From a virus (lineage: Duplodnaviria > Heunggongvirae > Uroviricota > Caudoviricetes), in IMG/VR virus record IMGVR_UViG_3300012979_000028, positions 21,985-85,984 of that record: a stretch of DNA of 64,000 nucleotides. One strand, 5' to 3'. This document shows, one piece after another, positions 1,029-22,566 of this stretch. The notes under the pieces were generated by a model. The model saw nothing but the letters and a program-made list of their open reading frames with translations. It searched no databases and was not told the origin of the DNA. Numbering within the stretch: position 1 is the first letter of the stretch; the number at the start of each line of letters is the position of its first letter. Made by a program: the position numbers and the translations under genes.

Positions 1029-1349
1029 CAGTTATGTTTAGAATTAGTCGTCTACTCTAATCCTGAGATTTCTCTCCTCATACTCTCATATGAGCTCAGA
1101 CTATATTTTCACCTTCATCATTACATGGTCAGGTGTTGTATCTTTCGAACAGTCATTAATAGACTTACTGTCCTACTCTCTTTCGAGATAGTCGTTGAAG
1201 TTTATAAAATCTTACTCTTACAAACTGCGGATTGTCCCTATCATAAAGATTTTTACTAAAGATTTAGTACTTTATGCCTAACAGGAGTTCCCCGCTTTTA
1301 ATACAATTATACGGTATATATTTCTATATACTAGGACTATTTTTAGTTA
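1029..1349 (-). mobile_element. ORF-less group I intron inside topoisomerase II large-subunit gene
   Basis: On the minus strand it contains P7-forming R/S elements (CGACUAUCUCGAAAGAGAG ... GAAAAUAUAGUCUG) and a shared core AGTAAAAATCTTTATGATAGGGACAATCCGCAG. It is the same family as the introns in the polA gene. No ORF. Precise excision joins ...ATDADED to GYAIRNGL..., restoring the Toprim DxDxDG motif. The in-frame stop at 1347-1349 is intronic. Confidence 0.65.
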
Positions 1350-2966
1350 ATCCTCATCTGCATCTGTTGCTATCACAATTTTAGAAAATCTAGTATACCT
1401 CTGAATAAGTTCGTAAGCTTCTTCTGGGGTTTTTGCATCTTTTGTTACATTATTTACATCAATCCCTAGACCGATTAATTTAAAGATTGTGAAAAGCTCT
1501 TTATTATCCATTGCTTGATCTGCGGAAGAGTCTTTTACATTTTTAACCTTACCGCGAAGAGGCATTACTGCATTATACCTAGTGTCTTTTCTACCTTTCT
1601 TTAGTGAACCTGCAGCAGAAAGTCCTTCACACAAAAACAGACTACAATTCCATCTATCAGGAGCTGTCGCATCGGCAAAACCATTAGCAATTTCACCCTT
1701 CAGCTTATATACTCCTCTACCACCAGCATCATCAATAATCTTCTGAGCCTTATCAATCGCACTCAGGGACTTCATAGATTCAGCCAAGTAATTAAGTTTA
1801 TCTAAGTGAGCTGACCAGTAATCTTCATTCTTCTTAAATATCTTCTGAAAATCCTTAAGAACCTCACTGAAATCACCCTTCTTAACTTTTGTAATCTGCT
1901 TTAAGTTCTCCTTGGTCTGCGAATTAAATTGACACTCATTAGCTAGAACAATACAGACAAACTTCAGGCCATTTAGTAGATAATCATGCTTGACTTTGAA
2001 ATAATCCTTGAATGCATCCTTGAATAGATTCTTTACTAGGCTCATATGGCATCCATCATTACAAGTCAATCCATTTACACTACCGGCTGAAACTACATTA
2101 CCAAGTCCAGGGTCAGCTTCAAACGTAATATAAATACCTACCTGCTTGTTATAACTTGTATCCCTCGGCACTATAGTCTCCGTAATTTCAAACTTATACG
2201 GACTAAAACTACTTCTGATATTCTCTCCATTCACTATAACATTAACACGCTTCTTATAAAACTTTTCCTGAATTAATAAAAAGTATTGTAAGTTACTGAG
2301 AGGAATTTCTACATTAACGTTATCAAAAATTGTAGGATCCGGCTTGAATAATACTATAGTACTCTGACCCTCCGGGAGAGATATATAACCAGGGACATCT
2401 TTGAAAATCTCCTTCTCTAAGTCCCCAAGTCTACCAGCTCCTTCATATACCTTTAATCCTTCTTCCATGACTAAGATATAATAGAGATCCTTCCTGACTC
2501 TAGGCCCACTTTTTTCCCAAGCCTCATTTACCGCCGGAATTGATCTATTATAGTTATTCTCCGTAATCTTGGATAGAATAATATAGGAGCTCGACGTAAA
2601 ATTAACAGCACTAGATCCAATACCATTCATTCCTACTCTGGCTATTGTATCAGTTCCATCAAATTTACTACCACTATGAAATTCTGTAATACTAAGTTCT
2701 GCGGCGGTAATATTTGGCTTGTCTATACTCATACTAATCGGCAAACCTCTTCCATTATCCGCAACAAAACAATACCCATTAAAGTTATTACTAATTAAGA
2801 TCGTATCACCATAACCACTAGAAATCTCATCACAACTATTGTCTATGATCTCTCTGATAGTTATATTCGCATTCTCCGTAGATCCAAGGTACATTCCAGT
2901 TCTTCGTCTACATGCATCCCTTGGTGATAAAAATCTGATCTCTTCTTCGTTAATCTTTTCACTCAT
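1350..2966 (-). CDS. DNA topoisomerase II large subunit (GyrB-like ATPase + start of Toprim; T4 gp39-like), exon 1
   Basis: N-terminus MSEKINEEEIRFLSPRDACRRRTGMYLGST is typical of GyrB/topo II. A GHKL ATPase region follows. It ends IVIATDADED at the start of the Toprim motif. Confidence 0.85.
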
Positions 2967-10285: not shown

Positions 10286-11512
10286 TTAATCATTTTTCTT
10301 ATTCTTCTGATACAAATAATAACCTCCAGTACCTAAAGCCGCAGTTCCAGTTCCAATACCTATATACTTACCGATATTGCTTTTCTGTCGTTGTGTCTGA
10401 GCTTGAGGGTTATTACTTACTGTACTGCCACTTCCTATAGTCTCTTTAACCGGCATATCAGTATTAGTTACGAATTTTGGTTGTGGCTGTGTAGGTGGTT
10501 CGTATACATTATTCTTTTTCTGCTGCTTTTCTAATATTTTAGTTCTTTCTGGCCTTGTCTCTTCTGTTCTCTTCTTTGCTAATACTCTTTGTTCTCTCTG
10601 TTGCTCTAATGCTTCTTTCTTTTGTTGTTCTAGTGCTGCTGCTATCTCTTTCTGTTGTTCTAATTGTTTTAATGCTTCCTCTCTCTGTTGATTATATGCA
10701 GCATCAGTCAACTCATCCTTAGCTATTTTGAATTTACCAGTCTTTCTATCTACTGAAACAAATGCATTATCTCTTAGCCCTTTTACTTTTCCACTATTAA
10801 AAACTCGAAGGTCATTTAGGTTATAGCTATAGTTGCCCCCGAAAGCAGTATCCTTACCAGCTTTACGATTTGCCTCATTTAACTTATCGAATAAAGCCCT
10901 GTTAGTTGAAACTCTATTACCCTCAGCGTAAACATTATTATACTGATCACTAACTCGACGCAATTCCCGCTTTCTAACATCAGCCTCGTAAGTAGCTTTA
11001 TCAAAATTTCTATTCTTTAGGAAAGCTTCACTCTCTTTTTCTCCTGCCTCCTGTAGTGCTTTAGAATTGTATTTTCTATTTAGTTCTCTGGCAAAATCAT
11101 TTCTAGATTGTTTATTCATTATCGGATTAATAATACGATCTGCTTCCTTTGATGTAATTTTTCCAGCCTTAAAATCTGCCTCCGCCTGATGAAGTATTCT
11201 TTCCTGATTTCTATCAAAGTCTTCTAATTCCTTAGTAAGCTTCTTTCCAAGATTTTTATCCTTATTTCTAAGAATAAAATCAAAATCATTAAAGTTTTCT
11301 GGATTATTCTTTAACCTCTCTGCTTTTCTTGCTACACTAGCTGCTTCATATTCAGCCGAATACTTAGCACTACGTCTTGCCTCTGCTCTAAGATTAAGTA
11401 ACCTGGCAGCCTCTTTATTTCTAGCTTCTCTAACCATTTTCTCAGCACCTTCACCATAAAGAGTTCTTATCTGAGCATAGTTAAAGAATAATTTTTGTCT
11501 TAGAATTCTCAT
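10286..11512 (-). CDS. paralog-family coiled-coil protein with C-terminal glycine-zipper TM
   Basis: 408 aa, starts MRILRQK. Long charged coiled-coil. C-terminus GIGTGTAALGTGGYYLYQ. Confidence 0.6.
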   Translation of the reverse strand: MRILRQKLFFNYAQIRTLYGEGAEKMVREARNKEAARLLNLRAEARRSAKYSAEYEAASVARKAERLKNNPENFNDFDFILRNKDKNLGKKLTKELEDFDRNQERILHQAEADFKAGKITSKEADRIINPIMNKQSRNDFARELNRKYNSKALQEAGEKESEAFLKNRNFDKATYEADVRKRELRRVSDQYNNVYAEGNRVSTNRALFDKLNEANRKAGKDTAFGGNYSYNLNDLRVFNSGKVKGLRDNAFVSVDRKTGKFKIAKDELTDAAYNQQREEALKQLEQQKEIAAALEQQKKEALEQQREQRVLAKKRTEETRPERTKILEKQQKKNNVYEPPTQPQPKFVTNTDMPVKETIGSGSTVSNNPQAQTQRQKSNIGKYIGIGTGTAALGTGGYYLYQKNKKND

Positions 11513-12718: not shown

Positions 12719-13792
12719 TTAATCTTCTTTTCCTTTATTATTCAGTGCATTATAACCAAGATAAGTAAGACCAGAGATACCAGCAGTTGCACCACCTAAG
12801 ACACCAGCTTTACCCCATCCACTTAATCCATCATACCAACCCTTTTCTTCTTGAGTTGGAGTAGTAGGAGTTTGAGTATTAGTATTAGTAGGGGTTTGAG
12901 GTTGTTGCTGAGTTTGTTGTGTATTAGTAGGGGTTTGAGGTTGTTGCTGAGTTTGTTGTGTATTAGTAGGAGGAGTATTAGTCTGCTGAGTCTGAGTTTG
13001 AGGTTGTTGCTGAGTTTGTTGTGTATTAGTAGGAGGAGTATTAGTCTGCTGAGTCTGAGTTTGAGGCTGTTGTTGTGTTTTTGCTGCCTCTTGTTGTGCT
13101 TTAGCCGCTTCCTGTTCTGCCTGAAGTTGTTTTCCTACCTTTTCTTGAGCAGCTCTTCTTTCATCCCAAGGTTTTTGTGCTTTCGCTGCCTCCTGTTGAG
13201 CTTTCGCCGCTTTAGCTGCTGCCTCTTCTTCTGCCTGAAGTTGTCTACCTACTTCTTCTTGAGCAGCTCTTCTCTTTGCTGTTACATTAACGTCTTTAAT
13301 TCCAGTACCAAGATCTTTATTACTATTACGTAGATTTTCGACTTCCTTAAGCTTATTCTCTAGTTGTTTATCTAAGGCAGGCTGTTCGTTTGTTAGTTTC
13401 TTGATTGTTTTTTCATTATTGTTATAGGCATTTACGTTAGCTATATCTCCTGAAGTTTCTGCCTTTGGTTTTAGGGTTGCTCGATTTGACTGTGCTACTT
13501 CTAGTCCTCTACTATTAGCACTTACAGCATCTCTCGCTACTCTAGCCTCTCTTTCTGCTGCAGCTATACTATTTCTGTTTCTAGCTATCTTAAACGAGTC
13601 CATCCAACCTTTTCCTGACGTACGTTGATTTCTGACACTTTGTATAAATCTTGCTCCGCTCGTAAAAGGGTTAACTGCATATTCTCGTTGTTCTTCTAGT
13701 TCTTGGTAATTGTTATATGCAGCGAATCTTTTTATTTTATACACTCCAGATCCGCAATATTTAATAGGAGAGTGTTGTCTGGTTAGTTTCAT
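12719..13792 (-). CDS. paralog-family protein with internal Q/T/P-rich and AQEEAAK tandem repeats and C-terminal glycine zipper
   Basis: 357 aa. N-terminus MKLTRQH. C-terminus GWGKAGVLGGATAGISGLTYLGY. Contains DNA-level tandem repeats. Confidence 0.6.
   Translation of the reverse strand: MKLTRQHSPIKYCGSGVYKIKRFAAYNNYQELEEQREYAVNPFTSGARFIQSVRNQRTSGKGWMDSFKIARNRNSIAAAEREARVARDAVSANSRGLEVAQSNRATLKPKAETSGDIANVNAYNNNEKTIKKLTNEQPALDKQLENKLKEVENLRNSNKDLGTGIKDVNVTAKRRAAQEEVGRQLQAEEEAAAKAAKAQQEAAKAQKPWDERRAAQEKVGKQLQAEQEAAKAQQEAAKTQQQPQTQTQQTNTPPTNTQQTQQQPQTQTQQTNTPPTNTQQTQQQPQTPTNTQQTQQQPQTPTNTNTQTPTTPTQEEKGWYDGLSGWGKAGVLGGATAGISGLTYLGYNALNNKGKED
12855..13080. repeat. intragenic tandem repeat (about 42-nt and 63-nt units, 2 copies each) encoding QQTQQQPQTQTQQTNTPPTNT
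   Basis: The unit ggttgttgctgagtttgttgtgtattagtagg... is repeated directly. Confidence 0.7.
13085..13275. repeat. second intragenic tandem repeat (about 90-nt unit x2) encoding RRAAQEEVGRQLQAEEEAAKA
   Basis: gctgcctcttgttgtgctttagccgcttcctgttctgcctgaagttg... is repeated. Confidence 0.55.
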
Positions 13793-14891: not shown

Positions 14892-15289
14892 TTAACCTAT
14901 CTTTTTGAATGTGACTGTGTACTTGCTTGTGTCTTTAATAATACAAGTACCCTTCTCTTGAATAAATCTATCAATCGGATTTGTTACCCACTTCGAAACT
15001 AGATCCTCATACTTAGTATCACATTCCACCTGAAGACTACGACAATTCATAATCTTCTCGTAAATCTTTCTCATACTATATGCACTACCAGAGAATTGAA
15101 TAGTATTATCATCTATTGCCTTCATATCCATAGCTCTCTCATAGGAATCGCCACATAGAAGGTCAAACAATAATCTAATCTTCGGACCAAAAGATGCACA
15201 ATAATCTGTATAATTCGTATCGTAAAATCTTCTAATCTCAAATATCTTCTCTACTGGTACATAATTAGTATTCGAATCCGCTTTTGTTC
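14892..15289 (-). CDS. family A DNA polymerase, terminal exon (about 131 aa; motif C region ...LQVECDTKYEDLV)
   Basis: The frame stays open upstream of the tracked start to 15289, next to the intron 3' end (...CTATGTG|AACAAAAGCGG). Contains the Q-V-x-D-E-like segment. Confidence 0.55.
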
Positions 15290-16499
15290 ACATAGGTTCA
15301 CTACGCCTATGCCGAATCTTATTTCAGCTATTAGTCTCCCAATAGGCCAGACTATATCTTCACTATAATAATATAATATAATATAATATAATATACTATA
15401 GTGTCTACCGTTTCGAGTATCAATCGTTTATACTCTACTCCCTTTCGGGATAGTCGTTGAATAAATTGCAAGAATTAAAGTAGTCAACTTTATTTCTATT
15501 ATTTACAGGATTTTCTTTAATAAAATCATCTACTTTAGTAGACTCTATTCTTAACTCTTTTACACCATTATTTACTAATGTCTTTTTAGGAGCAGAATAT
15601 TTTCCTCTCTTTTTTCTAGCAGGTTCTATTCTTCCTATAAATTTATAATCTTTATATTGATTAGACCCTATCAGTGATTTATCAACTAAAATAGATTTCT
15701 GTCCATTATTAATCCAAATTTTACCAAGATTAGGAGAAATTAAATTTCCTTTATTAAATCCCATTTCTCTATATTTTTCGTATTCATTAGGGTCTATCAT
15801 TTTAGATACTACCCCATTATTAACCCAGATAGTTCCTTTTAGGAAATTATGTTTACATGACCCTAAATTAAAACCGTTATCTAAAAATCTAGGAATATCT
15901 TCTTGATAAATGTAAATATCATATTTACCATCATTTACACAGATAGACCCTTCTTTCCATCCTGGTTTTCCATCAATAGAAACATTATATCCGAAAAGTA
16001 CTGAATCATATTCTTTAATCAATTCAGTTTCTCTTAGAAGTATTCTGTCGTAATTACTTGGAGTATCTTCATCCTCTATAAAGATGGAAAAATTATCTAT
16101 ATTAATATTCATGTTATGATACATTCCCCTACATTTAAATTCATTATTGCTTCTAAACAATATTACGTGCCCGTGAAATCCATCATAAAGTCGTCCAGGC
16201 AATCCATATTTAGCAGTCCCTATGTAATTTTTATTAGTAGATTTATCATGTATCCTATATAACACTGATTTATAATTTAATAATGGTTCTGGTAAATTTT
16301 CAATACCGTTAATTAAGTCTTTAAATTTAAATTCTCTCATTTTTTTTTATTTATTTTTATCTTTATTGCAATTTACTGCTGATTGACTCTATCTAAAGGA
16401 TTTTTACTATTGTGACTAAATCAATAGTACCTTTAGCTTAACAAGTTGTTCCAGCAATTAAGTAGATTTAAAGTGCACCATTTCTAGTTAATGCACTAC
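15290..16499 (-). mobile_element. group I intron with GIY-YIG homing endonuclease ORF
   Basis: The 3' core (P7: CGACUAUCCCGAAAGGGAG ... GAUAUAGUCUGG) sits at 15300-15440. The 5' core (AGTAAAAATCCTTTAGATAGAGTCAATCAGCAG) sits at 16375-16420. The ORF lies in between. Confidence 0.6.
15435..16340 (-). CDS. GIY-YIG homing endonuclease with NUMOD-like repeats
   Basis: SVLYRIHDKSTNKNYIGTA ... RETELIKEYDSVLFGYNV matches GIYxIxN..YVGSA/R..E..N of I-TevI-like enzymes. C-terminal WVNNGV/IWINNGQ/LVNNGV repeats. Confidence 0.75.
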   Translation of the reverse strand: MREFKFKDLINGIENLPEPLLNYKSVLYRIHDKSTNKNYIGTAKYGLPGRLYDGFHGHVILFRSNNEFKCRGMYHNMNINIDNFSIFIEDEDTPSNYDRILLRETELIKEYDSVLFGYNVSIDGKPGWKEGSICVNDGKYDIYIYQEDIPRFLDNGFNLGSCKHNFLKGTIWVNNGVVSKMIDPNEYEKYREMGFNKGNLISPNLGKIWINNGQKSILVDKSLIGSNQYKDYKFIGRIEPARKKRGKYSAPKKTLVNNGVKELRIESTKVDDFIKENPVNNRNKVDYFNSCNLFNDYPERE

Positions 16500-16559
16500 A
16501 ATAATTGGTTTAAGAGCTCTACTAGGGTTCCACTGTTGAGCAGAAACTCTAATATTATT
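16500..16559 (-). CDS. family A DNA polymerase, short exon (about 20 aa ...IIILEFLLNSGTLVELLNQLL)
   Basis: Lies between a B-type intron 3' end (...UUUUAUG|) and the next intron's 5' end. The frame links to the terminal exon. Boundaries are tentative. Confidence 0.35.
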
Positions 16560-16852
16560 CATAAAACCACTTGCCATTCAGTTTATCCAATATTTTCATA
16601 CTGGCCCGGACTATATCATCTTCCATTTATTTAATCTGGAAGGACTGCACTTCGAAAGATGGAATTTCACCACCAATCTACTCCTTCTCAGGATAGTCTC
16701 TACACCTTCTTATTTCTAAGCTTGGCACGGGATTAGCATAGATTATACACCCTTAGCTTTCCCCGTTAGCACTATTTCCATAGCACACCCTAGTTTTTCC
16801 AGGTTCACAGTCTTCTCATATAATATTACTACTATACGGCACAATTTTGTTT
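16560..16852 (-). mobile_element. ORF-less group I intron (B-type)
   Basis: Shares the core CATAAAYAAWTTGTGSCCNTATAGG...CACTTCG...GATAGTC...AAGCTTGGCACGG...GATATAGTC with the copies at 16874-17140 and 19759-20034. Confidence 0.55.
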
Positions 16853-16873
16853 ATGCTTGAAGTTCCTCCTTGT
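16853..16873 (-). CDS. family A DNA polymerase, 21-nt micro-exon (Q-G-G-T-S-S)
   Basis: ACAAGGAGGAACTTCAAGCAT lies between two B-type introns. Joined to the upstream exon it gives ...NLPIQGGTSS, matching the PolA N-x-P-[IM]-Q-G-[ST]-A-A motif. Confidence 0.4.
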
Positions 16874-17140
16874 CATTAATGTTAACTTTAAGTTCATTTT
16901 CCTTAAAGATCAGACTATATCATTATCTATTAATATATAGATAGATCGCACTTCGAAGAGAAGAATTTCACATCTCTTCTACTCCTTTTCAGGATAGTCG
17001 TTACACTTTCTTACTTATCCAGTAAGCTTAGCACGGGATTGGCATCTCAGCTTTCCCCGTTAGCACTATTTCCATAGCACACCCTTCTAGGTTCACGATC
17101 TTTTCGCTTATAAGTTACCCTATAAGGCCACAAATTATTT
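16874..17140 (-). mobile_element. ORF-less group I intron (B-type)
   Basis: 5' end AAATAATTTGTGGCCTTATAGGG right after exon ...CCCAT. P7 GACUAUCC/GAUAUAGUC. P9 hairpin CTTTAAGGAAAATGAACTTAAAG. Ends ...TTAATG. Confidence 0.6.
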
Positions 17141-17431
17141 ATGGGTAGATTCACTCCAAGTCTTTGAATTCTGGCTTCTTGATTCTTTTTCTCTCTTTGA
17201 TTTGTTGCAGCTTGATAATACTTCCACTCTTGAACTTGTAACTTATCACCTAACATAGTATTAATATATCCGTCGTGTGTTAGTGGATATTGCTGTTGAG
17301 AAGCCACATATTCACGAAGCTTAGGGAAACTCTTATAAAGTCCCTGAATAATATCCTCAGCCTCTTCTTCAGTTGCATTAAGACGTTCCGCTAGTGATTT
17401 TTTTCCAAGTCCATAAAGCCAATTTTTTTTT
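17141..17431 (-). CDS. family A DNA polymerase exon (motif B distal part: ...LYGLGKKSLAERLN...GYINTMLGDKLQVQEW...EARIQRLGVNLPI)
   Basis: Aligns with Klenow LIYGMSAFGLARQLN...GYVETLDGRRLYLPDI...AERAAINAPM. The tracked ORF 17047..17307 is read-through of this exon into the downstream intron. Confidence 0.6.
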
Positions 17432-18770
17432 CAAGGAGTATCGCTACTTCTCCCCGGTTCTCAGGTTTTATCCATGAACTCCTATGAGTTTGCCTCACAG
17501 ATTAGACTATATCTTCATCTTTATTTCTAAAGAGCTTACCGTTTCCACTATGCGAATTTTATAGTGTACTCCCTTTCGGGATAGTCGTTGAGGTTCAATC
17601 TGAAGATTGATTAGTCAGACCAATCTTTTTTATTTCATCTATAAGAGTTTGAGAGTCTGTAATTACATCATACGGATACTCAAATTCTTTTCCGAGATTA
17701 GAGTAGTATAAAACTTTAATACCATGTTCAGTACAAAGGTCTAACTTATTCTTATCTCTTAGTTTTACTTCTTTTAAATTATCCTCTCCTCCAAAGAACA
17801 CAACACTTTTAAAATGTTGAATTCCTTGACATTCAATAATAATATTATAGTCTGGTAAGTAAAAATCTACAAATTGTTTAGAATTATACACCAGCCAATC
17901 CCATGATTTTTGTTCTTCAGCCTTTATTGAGTTTTCATTTAAAATATTTCTTACGTAATCCTCTAAATGGGAACTTTTCACACATTGCGGGCATCTACAG
18001 CCTTGTAAATGGCTCTGAGCTTCCTGGAAAAACTCCCCATGTTCCGGACAGATTATACAAACTTCATCATGAAGATTATTAAATTTAACATTATCATAAT
18101 TATATCTAAAATTATGAATTTTATTTCCTCTTTCTTTGAAAGTTTCAATAGGCATTCTAAATCTTTTTGATAAATTAATTAATTTACAATTAGGACACCC
18201 TCTTCCAATTAGATGTTTAGAAGGACTTTGTTGAAATTCAGTTCCGCATTTATTGCATATTATTGTAACTTTTTCACTAGATCCTTTATAATCTACTTTT
18301 GAATAGGAGAAATTATTTCCATGTATTTTGGAAGCCTTTAATAGAAAATCATCCAGGGAAGTTCTAATTGCCTTCATCTTCTCCTTTCCGCAAATTGGGC
18401 AACCACATCCCCTTAAATGACTTCCAGCTTGCTGATAAAATTCATAATTGTGATTATTACATATAATAGGGATTTTATTTTTTGAACTAATACTATTATC
18501 TACTTTAGAATAATCATATTTATCTCCATGAATTTTTCTTGCCCTTTCAATAAATTTTTCTATAGTTAATTTTTCACTCATTGTACATTGTAATTAAATT
18601 TTATTTTAGATTAAACCTGCTGATTAACTCTATTCACTAGATTTTTACTATAAGCGACTAAATCTTATAGTACTAGTGACCTACGTAAATGTTAATTTAC
18701 TTCGAGTTTTTCCAGCATTTAGTAAGTAATAATTAAGTATCGCTACTTAACAGCGCACATTTTATTATAC
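17432..18770 (-). mobile_element. group I intron carrying a homing-endonuclease ORF
   Basis: 5' core at 18600-18770 (ACTTACTAAATGCTGGAAA...AGTAAAAATCTAGTGAATAGAGTTAATCAGCAGG). 3' core at 17432-17600 (CGACUAUCCCGAAAGGGAG, P8 hairpin CACUAU..AUAGUG, AAGAUAUAGUC). The ORF sits between them. Confidence 0.6.
17595..18581 (-). CDS. intron-encoded putative homing endonuclease: three zinc-ribbon repeats + Vsr/DUF559-like nuclease domain
   Basis: Triplicated module HG..Y.YSKV......K..IIC..HG.F.Q....HL.G.GCP.C. C-terminus FVDFYLPDYNIIIECQGIQHF resembles the DUF559/Vsr-type endonuclease core. Confidence 0.6.
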   Translation of the reverse strand: MSEKLTIEKFIERARKIHGDKYDYSKVDNSISSKNKIPIICNNHNYEFYQQAGSHLRGCGCPICGKEKMKAIRTSLDDFLLKASKIHGNNFSYSKVDYKGSSEKVTIICNKCGTEFQQSPSKHLIGRGCPNCKLINLSKRFRMPIETFKERGNKIHNFRYNYDNVKFNNLHDEVCIICPEHGEFFQEAQSHLQGCRCPQCVKSSHLEDYVRNILNENSIKAEEQKSWDWLVYNSKQFVDFYLPDYNIIIECQGIQHFKSVVFFGGEDNLKEVKLRDKNKLDLCTEHGIKVLYYSNLGKEFEYPYDVITDSQTLIDEIKKIGLTNQSSD

Positions 18771-18883
18771 GCCAAGGAAAATTGTTTTGAAGCGTTTACG
18801 CCACATCTTTTGCTGCTTTTTATCTAATTCATCCCAATGATCGCCTAAGTAAAGCTTCGCACTGTATATATAACATTTGTGTT
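18771..18883 (-). CDS. family A DNA polymerase exon (motif B proximal: ...HKCYIYSAKLYLGDHWDELDKKQQKMWRKRFKTIFLG)
   Basis: Aligns with Klenow DIHRATAAEVFG...SEQRRSAKAINFG. Junction phase is unresolved. Confidence 0.45.
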
Positions 18884-19228
18884 CAAGGAGTATCGTTACT
18901 TCTCCCCGGTTCTCAGGTTTTATCCATGAACTCCTGTAAGTTTTTTTACCCTACAGATCAGACTATATCTTCATCTCATTTTTACATGAGAGCTTACCGT
19001 TTCCACTATACGAATTTTATAGTGTACTCCCTTTCGGGATAGTCGTTGAGGTTCAATCTATAGAGATCAAACCTGCTGATTGACCCTATTAAAGAGATTT
19101 TTACTGAGTATTCCTCTAGTACTCTTTACCTACGTAAATTGTAAATAATTTACTTCAGGTGTTTCCAGCATTTAGTAAGTTAGTTTTTCTTAGAATCACT
19201 TCTAAGCGACACTAATATTTAATGTCAG
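18884..19228 (-). mobile_element. ORF-less group I intron (C+A type)
   Basis: Same 5' core (GACATTAAATATTAGTGTCGCTTAGAAGTGATTCTAAG...AATGCTGGAAAC) and 3' core (P7/P8/P9) as the intron at 19315-19650. Confidence 0.55.
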
Positions 19229-19314
19229 TTCCATTATTAAATTTTTCAATCAAATCTGGGTCTAAACTAGCAAACCCCGCGCTCTTTACTTCTGCACTAC
19301 TACATTTATGTTCA
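19229..19314 (-). CDS. family A DNA polymerase exon 3 or duplicated pseudo-exon (...EHKCSSAEVKSAGFASLDPDLIEKFNNGT)
   Basis: Its first ~30 nt are homologous to the start of exon 18771..18883 (AACAYAAATGT...AGTGCRGAAG). Flanked by two near-identical introns. Confidence 0.3.
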
Positions 19315-19650
19315 GGAAAGTTCACTACGCTCTCCCCGTTCTCTTATGAACTGCTATGAGTTCCTTCCCCATAGATCAGACTATATCTTCATCTCTGTTA
19401 CCAGAGAGCTTACCGTTTCGAGTATCAATCGTTTATACTCTACTCCCTTTCGGGATAGTCGTTGAGGTTCTGATTATAGATTAGTTAGTCAGACCAGTTT
19501 TAAATCAAAACCTGCTGATTGACCCTATGATAGAGATTTTTACTGAGGGTGACTAATTCCTCTAGTACTCTACCCTTAACAGGTGTTTCCAGCATTTAGT
19601 AAGTTAGTTTTTCTTAGAATCACTTCTAAGCGACACTAAAATTTAATGTC
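19315..19650 (-). mobile_element. ORF-less group I intron (C+A type)
   Basis: See 18884-19228. P7 CGACUAUCCCGAAAGGGAG / AAGAUAUAGUCUG. Confidence 0.55.
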
Positions 19651-19758
19651 GAAATAGGTCATCACATAATCACAACCACCATAGATTATATTACCATTTT
19701 CATCCCAGCTTGGTGGAGTAACAATACAATCTTTTAGGTCTGCATGCGAAATAATTGT
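19651..19758 (-). CDS. family A DNA polymerase exon 2 (TIISHADLKDCIVTPPSWDENGNIIYGGCDYVMTYF; motif A region)
   Basis: This is the only open frame across the segment between the B-type intron 3' end (...AAAATTG|) and the next intron. Aligns with Klenow DPNLQNIP...YVIVSADYSQIELR. Confidence 0.45.
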
Positions 19759-20034
19759 CAATTTTGTTAATCTTTAAGTTCATTTTCCTTAAAGTTCAGA
19801 CTATATCATCACCCTTTTTATATTGGGTGAGCTGCACTTCGGGATAAGGAATTTCACCTTAAACCTACTCTCTTTCGAGATAGTCGTTACACCTTCTTAT
19901 TTCTAAGCTTGGCACGGTATTGGGAATCTCACCTTTCACCGTTAGCTCTATTTACATTTACATAGAACACCCTAGATTTCTAGGTTCACAGCTTTCTGCA
20001 CTTATAAGTTTCCCTATAAGGCCACAAATTATTT
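19759..20034 (-). mobile_element. ORF-less group I intron (B-type)
   Basis: Starts AAATAATTTGTGGCCTTATAGGGAAAC immediately after exon-1 ...GGATTCCAT. P7 CGACUAUCUC/GAUAUAGUCUG. P9 hairpin CTTTAAGGAAAATGAACTTAAAG. Confidence 0.6.
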
Positions 20035-22566
20035 ATGGAATCCTGAGCTCCATCTTTTAGAACTCTTTGTATTTACTTCATAATGTACAAAACACTTTTC
20101 TACAGCCCCTTGTTCTCCTGGATCTGCTTCTCTTAGTGGAATATGGTCTTCACCTTCGATCACCCACTTATTATTAGCCTTGAACATTCCGTCGATATAA
20201 GTAGAGAGGACTTTAGCATATTTTTTATAGAGAAGATAATTAATAACCAGCTTTCTCATAAATTTAAAATCCTCTTGTAGGTCAGACTCATCGAACGGTT
20301 TGCCATAATCTAGGTATTCTCCATTAACATAACCAAAGAATTGAGCTTGAGCGATAAATCCATTAAAGTTAGACCAGATTTCTTTAACTTGATCTGCATC
20401 TTGAGGAACCACAGTCACTTTTTTAGTACCATCTGCTTTAGTTTTAGTAGAGGTTGAAGTTTTAATAGTTCCTAGGTATTCTCTTGATAGGTTATAAACT
20501 TTTTCTGGATAGTCTCCCAAGTCCTTTCCTTCAGAGTTATAATAGTTTTCTGTAGAAGTTAGGAAATGTTCGAATGCTTTTTCTATACTATCTATTCCTA
20601 GGTTTTGATAGAATTTCTCTGCATCTTTGAGTTGTTGAGTAGAGTCTAGGATAGCAGCAAGGAAAGCAGTTTGATATTTATACAGTTCGGCGAATTCATG
20701 GCATATCAGATCATTTTCCTCTGGGCTAGTACACATAAATAGGTTCTTACTAATATATTCAGAGTATTCACTTAGAGTTAGCCAAGATCCGAATGCATAG
20801 ATTTTATCAGGAATGTTATTAATATCTTTAAGTTGGTTACTAGATATTTTCTTTAGTTCTTTATAAGCTTTTTCATAGTACATATATTTTTCTAGTTCTA
20901 TTAGCTTATTATCCACCTTAATAGAATCTAGTCCAATAAGTGTTTTAATTTTTTCAGCTATAATTCCTAAGATTTTCTTTTTCTTAACAATTCCATCATC
21001 TATCTTAGTTTTCATTTTAACTTCGGTCATAGAACTTCTTACAATATCCATGAAGTCCCCAGCAAAAGTGTCACCATAGCTCATTCTAAGACTACCTTCA
21101 TTTACTCCCGTATCATAAGCATCCATTGTGTCTATGTTAGAAGATAGGATATACTTAGTTATCTCTAGTGGATCAGCATTAAAGAACTTACCGTCACGAA
21201 TTAATTTTTGAGCAACCGGATGGAATTTCTTTATATTAGCCATTTTACTAGAGTGTGTATTCATTTTAATCTTACATCTAGCGGTAGCACAATAAGTTAT
21301 TCCCCAAGCCATCATTTTCAGGGATTCGTTATGATATTGAAGTCTAAAGTTTTCATCAATATACAAACCGCTCGAGTGAAGAAGAGAGCCTAGTCTGGAA
21401 TTATCAAGGAAAGTTTCAAATGCATCAGTACTATATTCATTTTTCTTAGATTCATATAGCATTAGTGTATAGAAAGCATCCAAGTTACAGTAATAGCCTA
21501 AGATATCACTAGGAATACACATAAACGGATTTCCCCAATATTCTAGGATAAGACTTTCGAATTCTTTCACGTAGTTAGGATATCTTGTACTTAGTTCTGT
21601 CCACTCCGGCGTATTCTTGAAATTGCTCTGATCTACCTTAAGAATTTTTTGTCTATCTTTCTTGGTAGTTCCGGTAGTAGTAAATAGCATCTCATCAATC
21701 AAGTCAGAGATTCTATCAAATTCAGTATCCCATGCATTGACTCCTAATATATTTTGAGCTGTCCATTTGAGGGAATATTTCTTCAAGTGATTTCCATCCA
21801 AGACATTAATAGTAGAAGCGTCACAGAGATTATAAAGAGTTACACCAAGCATTCTATGACTAACTTGGAACTCGTACTGCATATTATAGACCCATATCTT
21901 TCTTTGTCTTTTCTCCAAGAATTCACCAAGTCTCTTCAGTAGTTCTAGGTATTCTCCGGGGGTATTATTATGTCTACAATCTGTAAAGCTAATAAATCCA
22001 CCAAACTGAGAATTACATAAAGATGCTCCAGATATTTCAAACCATTTATCCAAGGGCATACCAGAAGCTTCATAGTCAAATCCAAAGTTAGTATCTTCAG
22101 GGAGGCTATCCATATAATTTATCATGTTAATAGACTCCTGAACGTTATGAAGTATTTTGTGTTTAAAGTTGAAATTAACCTGTTGTGTAAATTCTGGAGA
22201 TAAGAAGTAGTTTATATCCTCTTCTTTCGGTTTATCATCTCCAATACATTTCACAAAAGCGCCACCCTCTATGGATAGTCTTTTTAATTTACAACAGTCT
22301 GAGAAGTTTTCATTACGTATACCAAAATGAAAATACTGTCTCAAACATGAAAAAGCACCAGGGTCAGCTAACAATACACCATCCCCAGGCCCTAATGTTT
22401 TTACTAATTTAATTTCTTCGTCAGTGAGTACGGGTATTTCTGATTTTCTACTTGATGTTCTAGCGATTAATATACTTTCACTAGTAGAAATACCATCAAT
22501 GAAAAAATAGTTGTTATTGAAACTACCGTTTTCATCTGAACTTAGAATAATTAATCTTTTGTTCAT
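20035..22566 (-). CDS. family A DNA polymerase, exon 1 (3'-5' exonuclease domain + N-terminal part of polymerase domain)
   Basis: Exo I FGFDYEASGM. Exo III YCNLDAFYTLML. C-terminal part ...KVLSTYIDGM...FVHYEVNTKSSKRWSSG aligns with Klenow KSTYTDKL...HTSYHQAVTATGRLSS. The tracked ORF terminates 3 codons into the intron. Confidence 0.8.

Follow-up and report, generated by a model that had tools for sequence, protein, structure and literature searches.

How a virus could obtain a complete replicative DNA polymerase from a gene whose catalytic part is broken into short pieces is the question raised by a locus in a 64,000 nt stretch of viral DNA (IMG/VR record IMGVR_UViG_3300012979_000028, positions 21,985 to 85,984; the whole stretch is called the window, and coordinates refer to it). 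A preliminary description of the window had reported an 845 aa open reading frame (ORF) that stops where a group I core begins, followed by polymerase-coding segments, in all about eight exons separated by seven group I introns. The ORF is present on the minus strand (20029-22566) and ends two codons into a group I element starting AAATAATTTGTGGCC. We consider it very probable (roughly 0.88) that the locus encodes the replicative family A DNA polymerase of a jumbo phage, with the coding region for palm and fingers interrupted by seven group I introns. The gene spans 22566-14892 on the minus strand, 7,675 nt in total, of which exons account for 3,606 nt and introns for 4,069 nt. It represents an extreme among something already known, the intron-dense phages with split polymerase genes, and not a new type of element.

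The insertions were identified with the Rfam covariance model RF00028 (gathering cut-off 50 bits), using a permissive scan over 14.5-20.5 kb. All seven were matched on the minus strand (20044-15328; E 4.6e-15 to 1.1e-5), and these E-values rule out chance matches. Four introns reach the gathering score (53.4-64.4 bits), and all such matches in the 64-kb window lie inside the gene. A regular expression for the P7 strands (GAYTATY...GAWATAGTC) likewise found exactly seven cores in the 64 kb, every one of them in the gene. The division into seven introns and eight exons, for which the preliminary description had proposed a covariance-model search as a check, is thereby upheld.

Splice sites were placed after the U of the P1 U-G pair at the 5' side and after the frame-keeping G at the 3' side. 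The placements were then checked in three ways, by the open spliced frame and its Pfam match, by alignment to homologues, and by the DNA of a related locus, L001. This locus (and L002; ENA scaffold) is about 96% identical to the window in exon 1, and its DNA is unbroken over junctions 1, 3, 4, 5 and 6. Positions 1-2645 of the spliced coding sequence correspond to L001 10001-12651, and 2661-3219 to L001 14218-14776, ungapped, so that a natural intron-less allele delimits five of the introns to the base. At junctions set independently by protein and DNA alignment, the U at -1 is paired with G in P1 in seven of seven introns, and each intron ends in G (in order, ...UUG, AUG, AUG, UUG, AUG, CUG and GCG). 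The resulting exons and introns are listed below, with coordinates running from high to low on the minus strand, a slash marking a splice junction, and corresponding residues of Taq polymerase in brackets.

22566..20035 (-): exon 1, 2,532 nt, 844 codons; N-terminal region, putative 3'-5' exonuclease motifs and thumb; ends ...RWSSGFH; boundary based on the unbroken L001 DNA over junction 1 and on homologues reading SSGFH/TIISH.

20034..19759 (-): intron 1, 276 nt, family A, no ORF; phase 0, between H844 and T845, splitting the invariant KRWSSGFH/TI segment upstream of motif A; in P1, CCAU/AAA pairs with UUUGUGG, the U-G pair lying at the splice site; final base G; absent from L001; RF00028 match at 20044-19777 (-), 49.4 bits, E 1.4e-10.

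19758..19646 (-): exon 2, 113 nt; TIISHADLKDC...YVMTYFD plus AU; ends straight after the catalytic Asp of motif A, D881.

19645..19303 (-): intron 2, 343 nt, family B, no ORF; phase 2, within the Ile882 codon that follows D881 (Taq D610); site occupied in L001 and many relatives; P1 U-G pair present, last base G; RF00028 match at 19655-19354 (-), 64.4 bits, E 4.6e-15.

19302..19222 (-): exon 3, 81 nt; (I)SSAEVKSAGFASLDPDLIEKFNNGTD plus AU; remainder of motif A.

19221..18874 (-): intron 3, 348 nt, family B, no ORF; phase 2, within the Ile909 codon (Taq I638), D-I-H segment; missing from L001, whose DNA is ungapped there; RF00028 match at 19231-18934 (-), 59.9 bits.

18873..18769 (-): exon 4, 105 nt; (I)YIYSAKLYLGDHWDELDKKQQKMWRKRFKTIFLG plus GU; first half of motif B (O-helix).

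18768..17420 (-): intron 4, 1,349 nt, family B, with an ORF in the P6 loop; phase 2, within the Val944 codon (Taq V669) of the O-helix, between K938 and Y946 (Taq K663 and Y671); missing from L001; RF00028 matches at 18717-18618 and 17709-17482 (-), 15.9 and 33.1 bits, two halves around the ORF.

17419..17141 (-): exon 5, 279 nt; (V)LYGLGKKSLAERLN...GYINTMLGD...RLGVNLP plus AU; adjoins exon 4 in L001.

17140..16874 (-): intron 5, 267 nt, family A, no ORF; phase 2, within the Ile1037 codon (Taq V753), which precedes Q1038 (Taq Q754); missing from L001; RF00028 match at 17150-16891 (-), 53.4 bits.

16873..16853 (-): exon 6, a micro-exon of 21 nt; A CAA GGA GGA ACT TCA AGC AU, coding (I)QGGTSS.

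16852..16579 (-): intron 6, 274 nt, family A, no ORF; phase 2, within the Ile1044 codon (Taq L760), seven codons past intron 5; RF00028 match at 16862-16587 (-), 54.4 bits.

16578..16491 (-): exon 7, 88 nt; (I)MASGFMNNIRVSAQQWNPSRALKPIIVVH; ends one codon short of the catalytic Asp of motif C.

16490..15279 (-): intron 7, 1,212 nt, family B, with an ORF in the P6 loop; phase 0, within motif C between H1073 and D1074 (Taq H784/D785); RF00028 match at 15486-15328 (-), 37.2 bits, in the 3' half of this ORF-bearing intron.

15278..14892 (-): exon 8, 387 nt including the stop; DSNTNYVPVEKIF...; C-terminal domain; ends ...TFKKIG followed by the stop codon.

The micro-exon proposed in the preliminary description is real, as the same 21 nt, 100% identical, lie inside unbroken coding DNA of L001. 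The exon given there as 60 nt is exon 7, of 88 nt. The 3' end of intron 6 was set at ...AAACUG because homologues read SSI-MAS-GFMNNIR and the L001 alignment starts at 16578; alternative starts giving an exon 7 of 58 or 79 nt were rejected on the same evidence, the residues MAS being missing from the product.

Conceptual splicing gives a stop-free open frame of 1,201 aa, whose residues 875-1091 match Pfam DNA_pol_A (PF00476) with 98.2 bits (cut-off 34.3; E 6.3e-28). Exon 1 alone, the small ORFs and the intron 7 ORF gave no match to a Pfam family. The closest solved structures are the phiLo DNA polymerase (9qhs; E 6e-25) and the Taq and Bst Pol I enzymes (about E 1e-11 to 1e-12). By protein search and alignment, uninterrupted homologues of 1,153-1,217 aa (52-73% identity) line up colinearly with the product, and invariant residues are rejoined at every junction (SSGFH/TIISH, YFD-I-SSAEVK, D-I-YIYSA, FLG-V-LYGLG, NLP-I-QGGT and VVH/DSNT). 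The splice-and-compare check suggested earlier, in which a product of about 1200 aa should align with the PolA motifs A, B and C, thus came out in favour of a spliced polymerase. Motif A residues D881 and E886 correspond to Taq D610 and E615, motif B residues R934, K938 and Y946 to Taq R659, K663 and Y671, Q1038 to Taq Q754, and motif C residues H1073 and D1074 to Taq H784 and D785. Motif C reads HDS, not HDE, across the whole clade; the phiLo enzyme also lacks the Glu and reads HDA. Several motif labels of the preliminary description had to be corrected. Motif A is not IIYGGCDY; it is YFD-I-SSAEVK, across the exon 2/3 junction, where it is split by intron 2. Similarly, motif C is not LQVECD; it is IIVVH/DSNT, across the exon 7/8 junction and split by intron 7. 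The exon 3/4 junction, labelled DIH, reads D-I-Y. The reported clustering of the insertions in the catalytic palm and fingers was borne out by the Taq alignment of the intron sites, and all seven fall in the most conserved segments of the protein.

In the N-terminal part, where a 3'-5' exonuclease domain may lie, residues 208-404 align to residues 270-471 of the phiLo polymerase (i-E 9e-7). There is no direct Pfam match in this region; PF01612 is on record for two homologues (P0018 and P0060), and FDYE, YNMQYE and YCNLD are readable as Exo I, II and III. The phiLo polymerase is one of a subfamily whose members carry a uracil-DNA glycosylase domain at the N-terminus. Within the N-terminal 150 or so residues of the window polymerase (22566-22100), the clade consensus has an LLVG.EP-type segment that is loosely similar to that domain.

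An annotation pipeline would see at this locus an 845 aa protein without a recognised domain, plus debris; the replicative polymerase is visible only once the exons are spliced. Many relatives in the protein database are likewise cut off, some near 883 aa and others near 1,040 aa. That the fragments are instead expressed separately, or joined as protein, is hardly credible for this gene. Inteins and genes split by free-standing endonuclease genes do occur in Jug and crAss-like phages, as described in PMC7886860 and PMC12880540. Here, start codons are lacking from exons of 21, 81, 88 and 105 nt, five exons start in mid-codon, the insertions are ribozymes through which the exon frame is not continued, and family searches of the ORFs of the region did not find a Hint/intein domain. 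A stop in the exon frame is met no more than four codons past the 5' splice site in introns 1, 2, 3, 4 and 7, while the frame reads through for about 12 codons into intron 6 and about 31 codons into intron 5.

Conservation of the ribozymes was examined by alignment. The seven introns form two lineages, family A (introns 1, 5 and 6; 76-83% pairwise identity) and family B (introns 2 and 3 and the cores of introns 4 and 7; 74-89%). For family A, introns 1, 5 and 6 were aligned with 16 introns of relatives, and of the 53 pairs that RNAalifold predicted, 36 showed compensatory changes. When P1 and the P7 pseudoknot were included, 95.2% of cells were paired over 13 helices, and 41 of 65 pairs had changed on both sides. 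None of 500 shuffles reached the observed values, and sliding the 3' partners left 37-45% paired. P3 and P7 make the expected pseudoknot (P7 98.9% paired, with two compensatory pairs), and the P1 U-G pair is kept in 18 of the 19 sequences. Introns 4 and 7 were entered without their ORFs and aligned with family B throughout; the prediction for this family comprises P4, P5, P6, P7, P7.2, P8 and P9, with 19 of 39 pairs compensatory, and the ORF-stripped introns 4 and 7 fit it. The P9 and P10 pairings were left out of the scoring because the alignment is out of register there. Judging from the aligned sequences, the hairpins found between P7 and P3' look like the subgroup IA elements P7.1/P7.2.

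Within each lineage, some introns are very close. Introns 2 and 3 are 89% identical and have the guide UUAGUGUCG in common, their 5' exons ending in GACAU (19645-19625 and 19221-19201). Introns 1 and 5 are 77-83% identical and have the guide UUUGUGG in common, with 5' exons ending in CCAU (20034-20015 and 17140-17121). Intron 5 is the nearest relative of intron 1 in the data, which hints, weakly, at intragenic copying.

With five introns devoid of endonuclease genes, a long open read-through into intron 5, and duplicated guides that invite mis-splicing, the gene might be thought to be decaying, with at least one intron that no longer splices and a polymerase copy that is a pseudogene or gives a very low yield. 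This is very unlikely. All eight exons are free of stops and frameshifts, all clade-invariant residues are retained, and the ribozyme cores keep all their helices in the clade-wide covarying alignment. Differences from L001 are mostly synonymous, and no second polymerase gene was seen in the 64-kb window.

Presence and absence of the introns vary among related genes. Related loci (128) were taken from IMG/VR and metagenomes, and chained tblastn matches were used to count insertions. As a counting control, the window itself gave six gaps and seven P7 motifs, introns 5 and 6 being merged as the micro-exon is too short to match. Relatives carry between zero and three insertions per gene, and the window gene bears the heaviest load of the 129; its inserts total 4,069 nt compared to about 2.4 kb in the most loaded relative. 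Within what could be checked, the extreme intron density claimed in the preliminary description therefore holds. At least about nine insertion sites are in use among the relatives (residues ~838-846, 882-884, 887-896, 909-913, 940-944, 1037-1038, 1044, 1059 and 1070-1077). In L001, introns occupy site 2 (with an ORF), site 2b, which lies 15 nt further downstream, and site 7 (no ORF). In L109, only sites 3 and 6 are occupied, and its site 6 intron shares 98.5% identity with intron 6 of the window. For introns 2 and 7, identity to the L001 introns at the corresponding sites is 86-97%, the 5' half of intron 7 being 97% identical to the ORF-less L001 intron. Introns 3, 5 and 6 had been considered as new intragenic copies at unique sites; this was ruled out by L109 (sites 3 and 6) and by L086, L118 and L126 (site 5).

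Some relatives show further arrangements. In L001 (13941-14222; also in L002), the intron at site 2 is followed by a 15 nt micro-exon, T AGT AGT GCT GAG GT, and the L001/L002 intron that comes after ...AEV is missing from the window and has no Rfam match at E<0.01. L118 carries a 785 nt insert with three P7 motifs at site 5 (~10680-11470). Three inserts of about 255 nt in L093 (218-1330) lack the P7 motif of families A and B, and may represent a third ribozyme lineage.

The contigs that carry the relatives measure 340-404 kb and come from gut samples of humans and animals. The window PolA is 64% identical to that of human-gut contigs of 390-401 kb, and the polymerase gene is uninterrupted in the loci of these that were fetched. 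A megablast search of the region against 50,697 phage records gave no match, and tblastn found only distant polymerases (29% identity or less).

Taken as a spliced gene, the locus would be transcribed as a single 7.7-kb precursor in which every intron folds as a group I ribozyme. An external guanosine would attack the phosphate that follows the U of the P1 U-G pair, the freed 5' exon would attack past the terminal G of the intron, and seven such reactions would give the 3,606 nt frame and the 1,201 aa polymerase. Several points weigh against this picture. Self-splicing of each intron is an inference from sequence. Intron 1 scores just below the Rfam threshold (49.4 vs 50 bits), and introns 4 and 7 are matched only partially, owing to their ORFs. 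Ribosomes reading through the 31 or so open codons of intron 5 could disturb its folding. The guides common to introns 1 and 5, and to introns 2 and 3, could cross-pair and cause exons to be skipped; skipping of the 81 nt exon 3 would keep the frame. Lastly, introns 4 and 5 are 279 nt apart, which is more than the assembly k-mer, and linkage of the first four introns to the last three depends on the path chosen by the assembler.

The source is a MEGAHIT k141 contig of 325,884 bp (ERZ27246411). Exons 2, 3, 4, 6 and 7 (21-113 nt) are shorter than the 141 nt k-mer, so single k-mers join introns 1-2-3-4 and introns 5-6-7. Two independent Logan contigs (run SRR6059713) match the window at 100% identity over 31189-19610 and 16784-15431, and cover intron 1-exon 2-intron 2 and intron 6-exon 7-intron 7. 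The intron 5-exon 6-intron 6 junction had no exact match in IMG/VR. Co-existing alleles with other intron sets are known at 93-97% identity (L001 with sites 2, 2b and 7, L109 with sites 3 and 6), and Logan contig L129 breaks off within intron 2, in a part that is almost the same in intron 3. It could therefore be argued that the introns are real and the contig is a mosaic of strains, no single phage genome carrying all seven. The only place that leaves room for a mosaic path is exon 5, whose 279 nt exceed k=141, and the two blocks on either side by themselves already hold four and three introns. Given the k-mer linkage and the identical Logan contigs, a merged assembly is quite unlikely, and a single gene with seven introns remains the preferred reading.

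The introns with ORFs point to how such a load may have been acquired. Both ORFs sit in the P6 loop, closed by perfect 10-bp stems; introns 1, 2, 3, 5 and 6 have none.

17595..18581 (-): ORF of intron 4, 328 aa, homing-endonuclease-like with treble-clef zinc fingers.

15435..16340 (-): ORF of intron 7, 301 aa, an I-TevI-like GIY-YIG homing endonuclease.

In intron 4, the P6 strand GGUUUAAUCU (from 18617) pairs with AGAUUGAACC (from 17601), and in intron 7, UAAAUUGCAA (from 16375) pairs with UUGCAAUUUA (from 15471). The intron 4 ORF matches phrog_559 ('HNH endonuclease', 5e-62), phrog_9084 ('homing endonuclease', 8e-21) and Pfam DUF4379 (4e-11); searches of PDB and NCBIfam gave no useful match. 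The 3' end of the intron 7 ORF overlaps P6', P7 and P7.1 of the ribozyme. A profile of its family (18 homologues) matches the I-TevI catalytic domain (1ln0) over residues 2-92 with E 1.2e-7, while a single-sequence search reached E 0.18 only. Residues Y28, Y39, R50, E104 and N119 are invariant in the family and correspond to the GIY-YIG catalytic Tyr, Tyr, Arg, Glu and Asn, and the most distant homologue carries PF01541 and PF07460.

Judging from the sequence comparisons, endonuclease-driven homing from other alleles is the probable source of the intron load. Homing would have been accompanied by co-conversion of neighbouring exons and of ORF-less introns, and by recombination between intron copies. 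Compared to L001, exons 1, 5 and 8 are about 97% identical (exon 8 97.4%), and exons 2, 3 and 4 are 88%, 73% (72.8%) and 90% identical at the nucleotide level, the differences in exons 2-4 being mostly synonymous. In exons 2-4 (19758-18769), the divergence can be read as marking tracts of co-conversion that accompanied homing from divergent donors. A stretch of 55 nt over P7, P7.1 and P7.2 is 100% identical between introns 2 (19465-19411) and 7 (15460-15406), which are about 74% identical elsewhere, suggesting exchange or gene conversion between intron copies in one gene.

A further proposal, put forward only tentatively, is that this is the most intron-dense protein-coding gene so far encountered in a bacterial virus, with seven introns in 687 nt of coding sequence and a 21 nt exon, recently assembled by homing, co-conversion and recombination of two ribozyme lineages. 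A search of the open-access literature turned up no phage gene described as having five or more group I introns. In fungal mitochondria, the essential gene cox1 has accumulated numerous group I introns at conserved sites, and strains differ in which of them they carry; unlike the window gene, it is organellar and needs protein splicing co-factors, and does not belong to a bacterial virus. Should the proposal be true, the gene would let one ask, in a natural setting, how many rounds of self-splicing a single bacterial mRNA tolerates, and whether common guides lead to regulated or to accidental skipping of exons, near-identical intron-less alleles being available for five of the seven sites. The locus offers matched alleles with and without single introns, and combines two endonuclease-bearing and five ORF-less introns within 5 kb. 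Together with its micro-exons of 21 nt (15 nt in a relative), it provides material for the study of homing, co-conversion, ribozyme folding in a crowded transcript, and exon skipping.

Group I introns in phage PolA genes have been known since SPO1, and up to three occur in the polymerase genes of Bastillevirinae (PMC11878797). SPO1, Bastille and other Bastillevirinae resemble the window gene in the family A polymerase host gene, the group I class, the endonuclease ORFs in peripheral loops, and the insertions in conserved catalytic segments (PMC11878797). They differ in having one to three introns, compared to seven introns of two ribozyme lineages and exons down to 21 nt, and the window polymerase belongs to a different, larger subfamily, closest in solved structure to phiLo 9qhs. 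PMC11878797 also describes several group I introns per gene and small internal exons in orf142 of Staphylococcus phage Twort and in phiNIT1/SIOphi, and exon skipping was observed in these multi-intron genes; three introns at most, and no 21 nt exon, are reported in the text consulted.

The Jug phages of Bacteroides and Phocaeicola have genomes of 360-402 kb with a mean of 18.5 group I introns, and metatranscriptome reads backed splicing for 37 of 76 predicted introns (PMC12880540, published 2025-26). Their polymerase genes are stated there to be 'frequently split'. Assignment to this clade goes by genome identity of 90% or more inside a group, or by position in the TerL/MCP phylogeny. Jug phages and relatives are like the window genome in size (326-402 kb), standard genetic code and AT-rich composition, and in their many short group I introns, split polymerase genes, and GIY-YIG and HNH-type endonucleases (PMC12880540). 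Its PolA similarity and 326-kb size suggest that the window genome belongs to a group related to the Jug gut phages. Zeta crAss-like phages have up to 14 introns per genome, and Zeta and Delta members share with the window the dense group I introns in core genes, for example a capsid gene divided into five fragments and PolB into four (PMC7886860). These phages differ in order, in their polymerases and in their often alternative genetic codes, and the numbers of fragments reported for their genes stay below eight.

The other 58 kb of the window contains one more group I match, at 1077-1354 (-) (RF00028, 40.2 bits, E 8.6e-7). This intron interrupts a gene for the large subunit of topoisomerase II (ORF 1347-2966 (-); phrog_543, 7.8e-70) straight after the Toprim segment ...IATDADED, and the downstream frame goes on GYAIRNGLCYAFLKF. 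Closer to the polymerase gene, a 357 aa ORF (12719-13792 (-)) ends in long Q/T/P-rich repeats (QQTQQQPQTQTQQTNTPPTNT...), and the sole difference between contig and window lies in these repeats.

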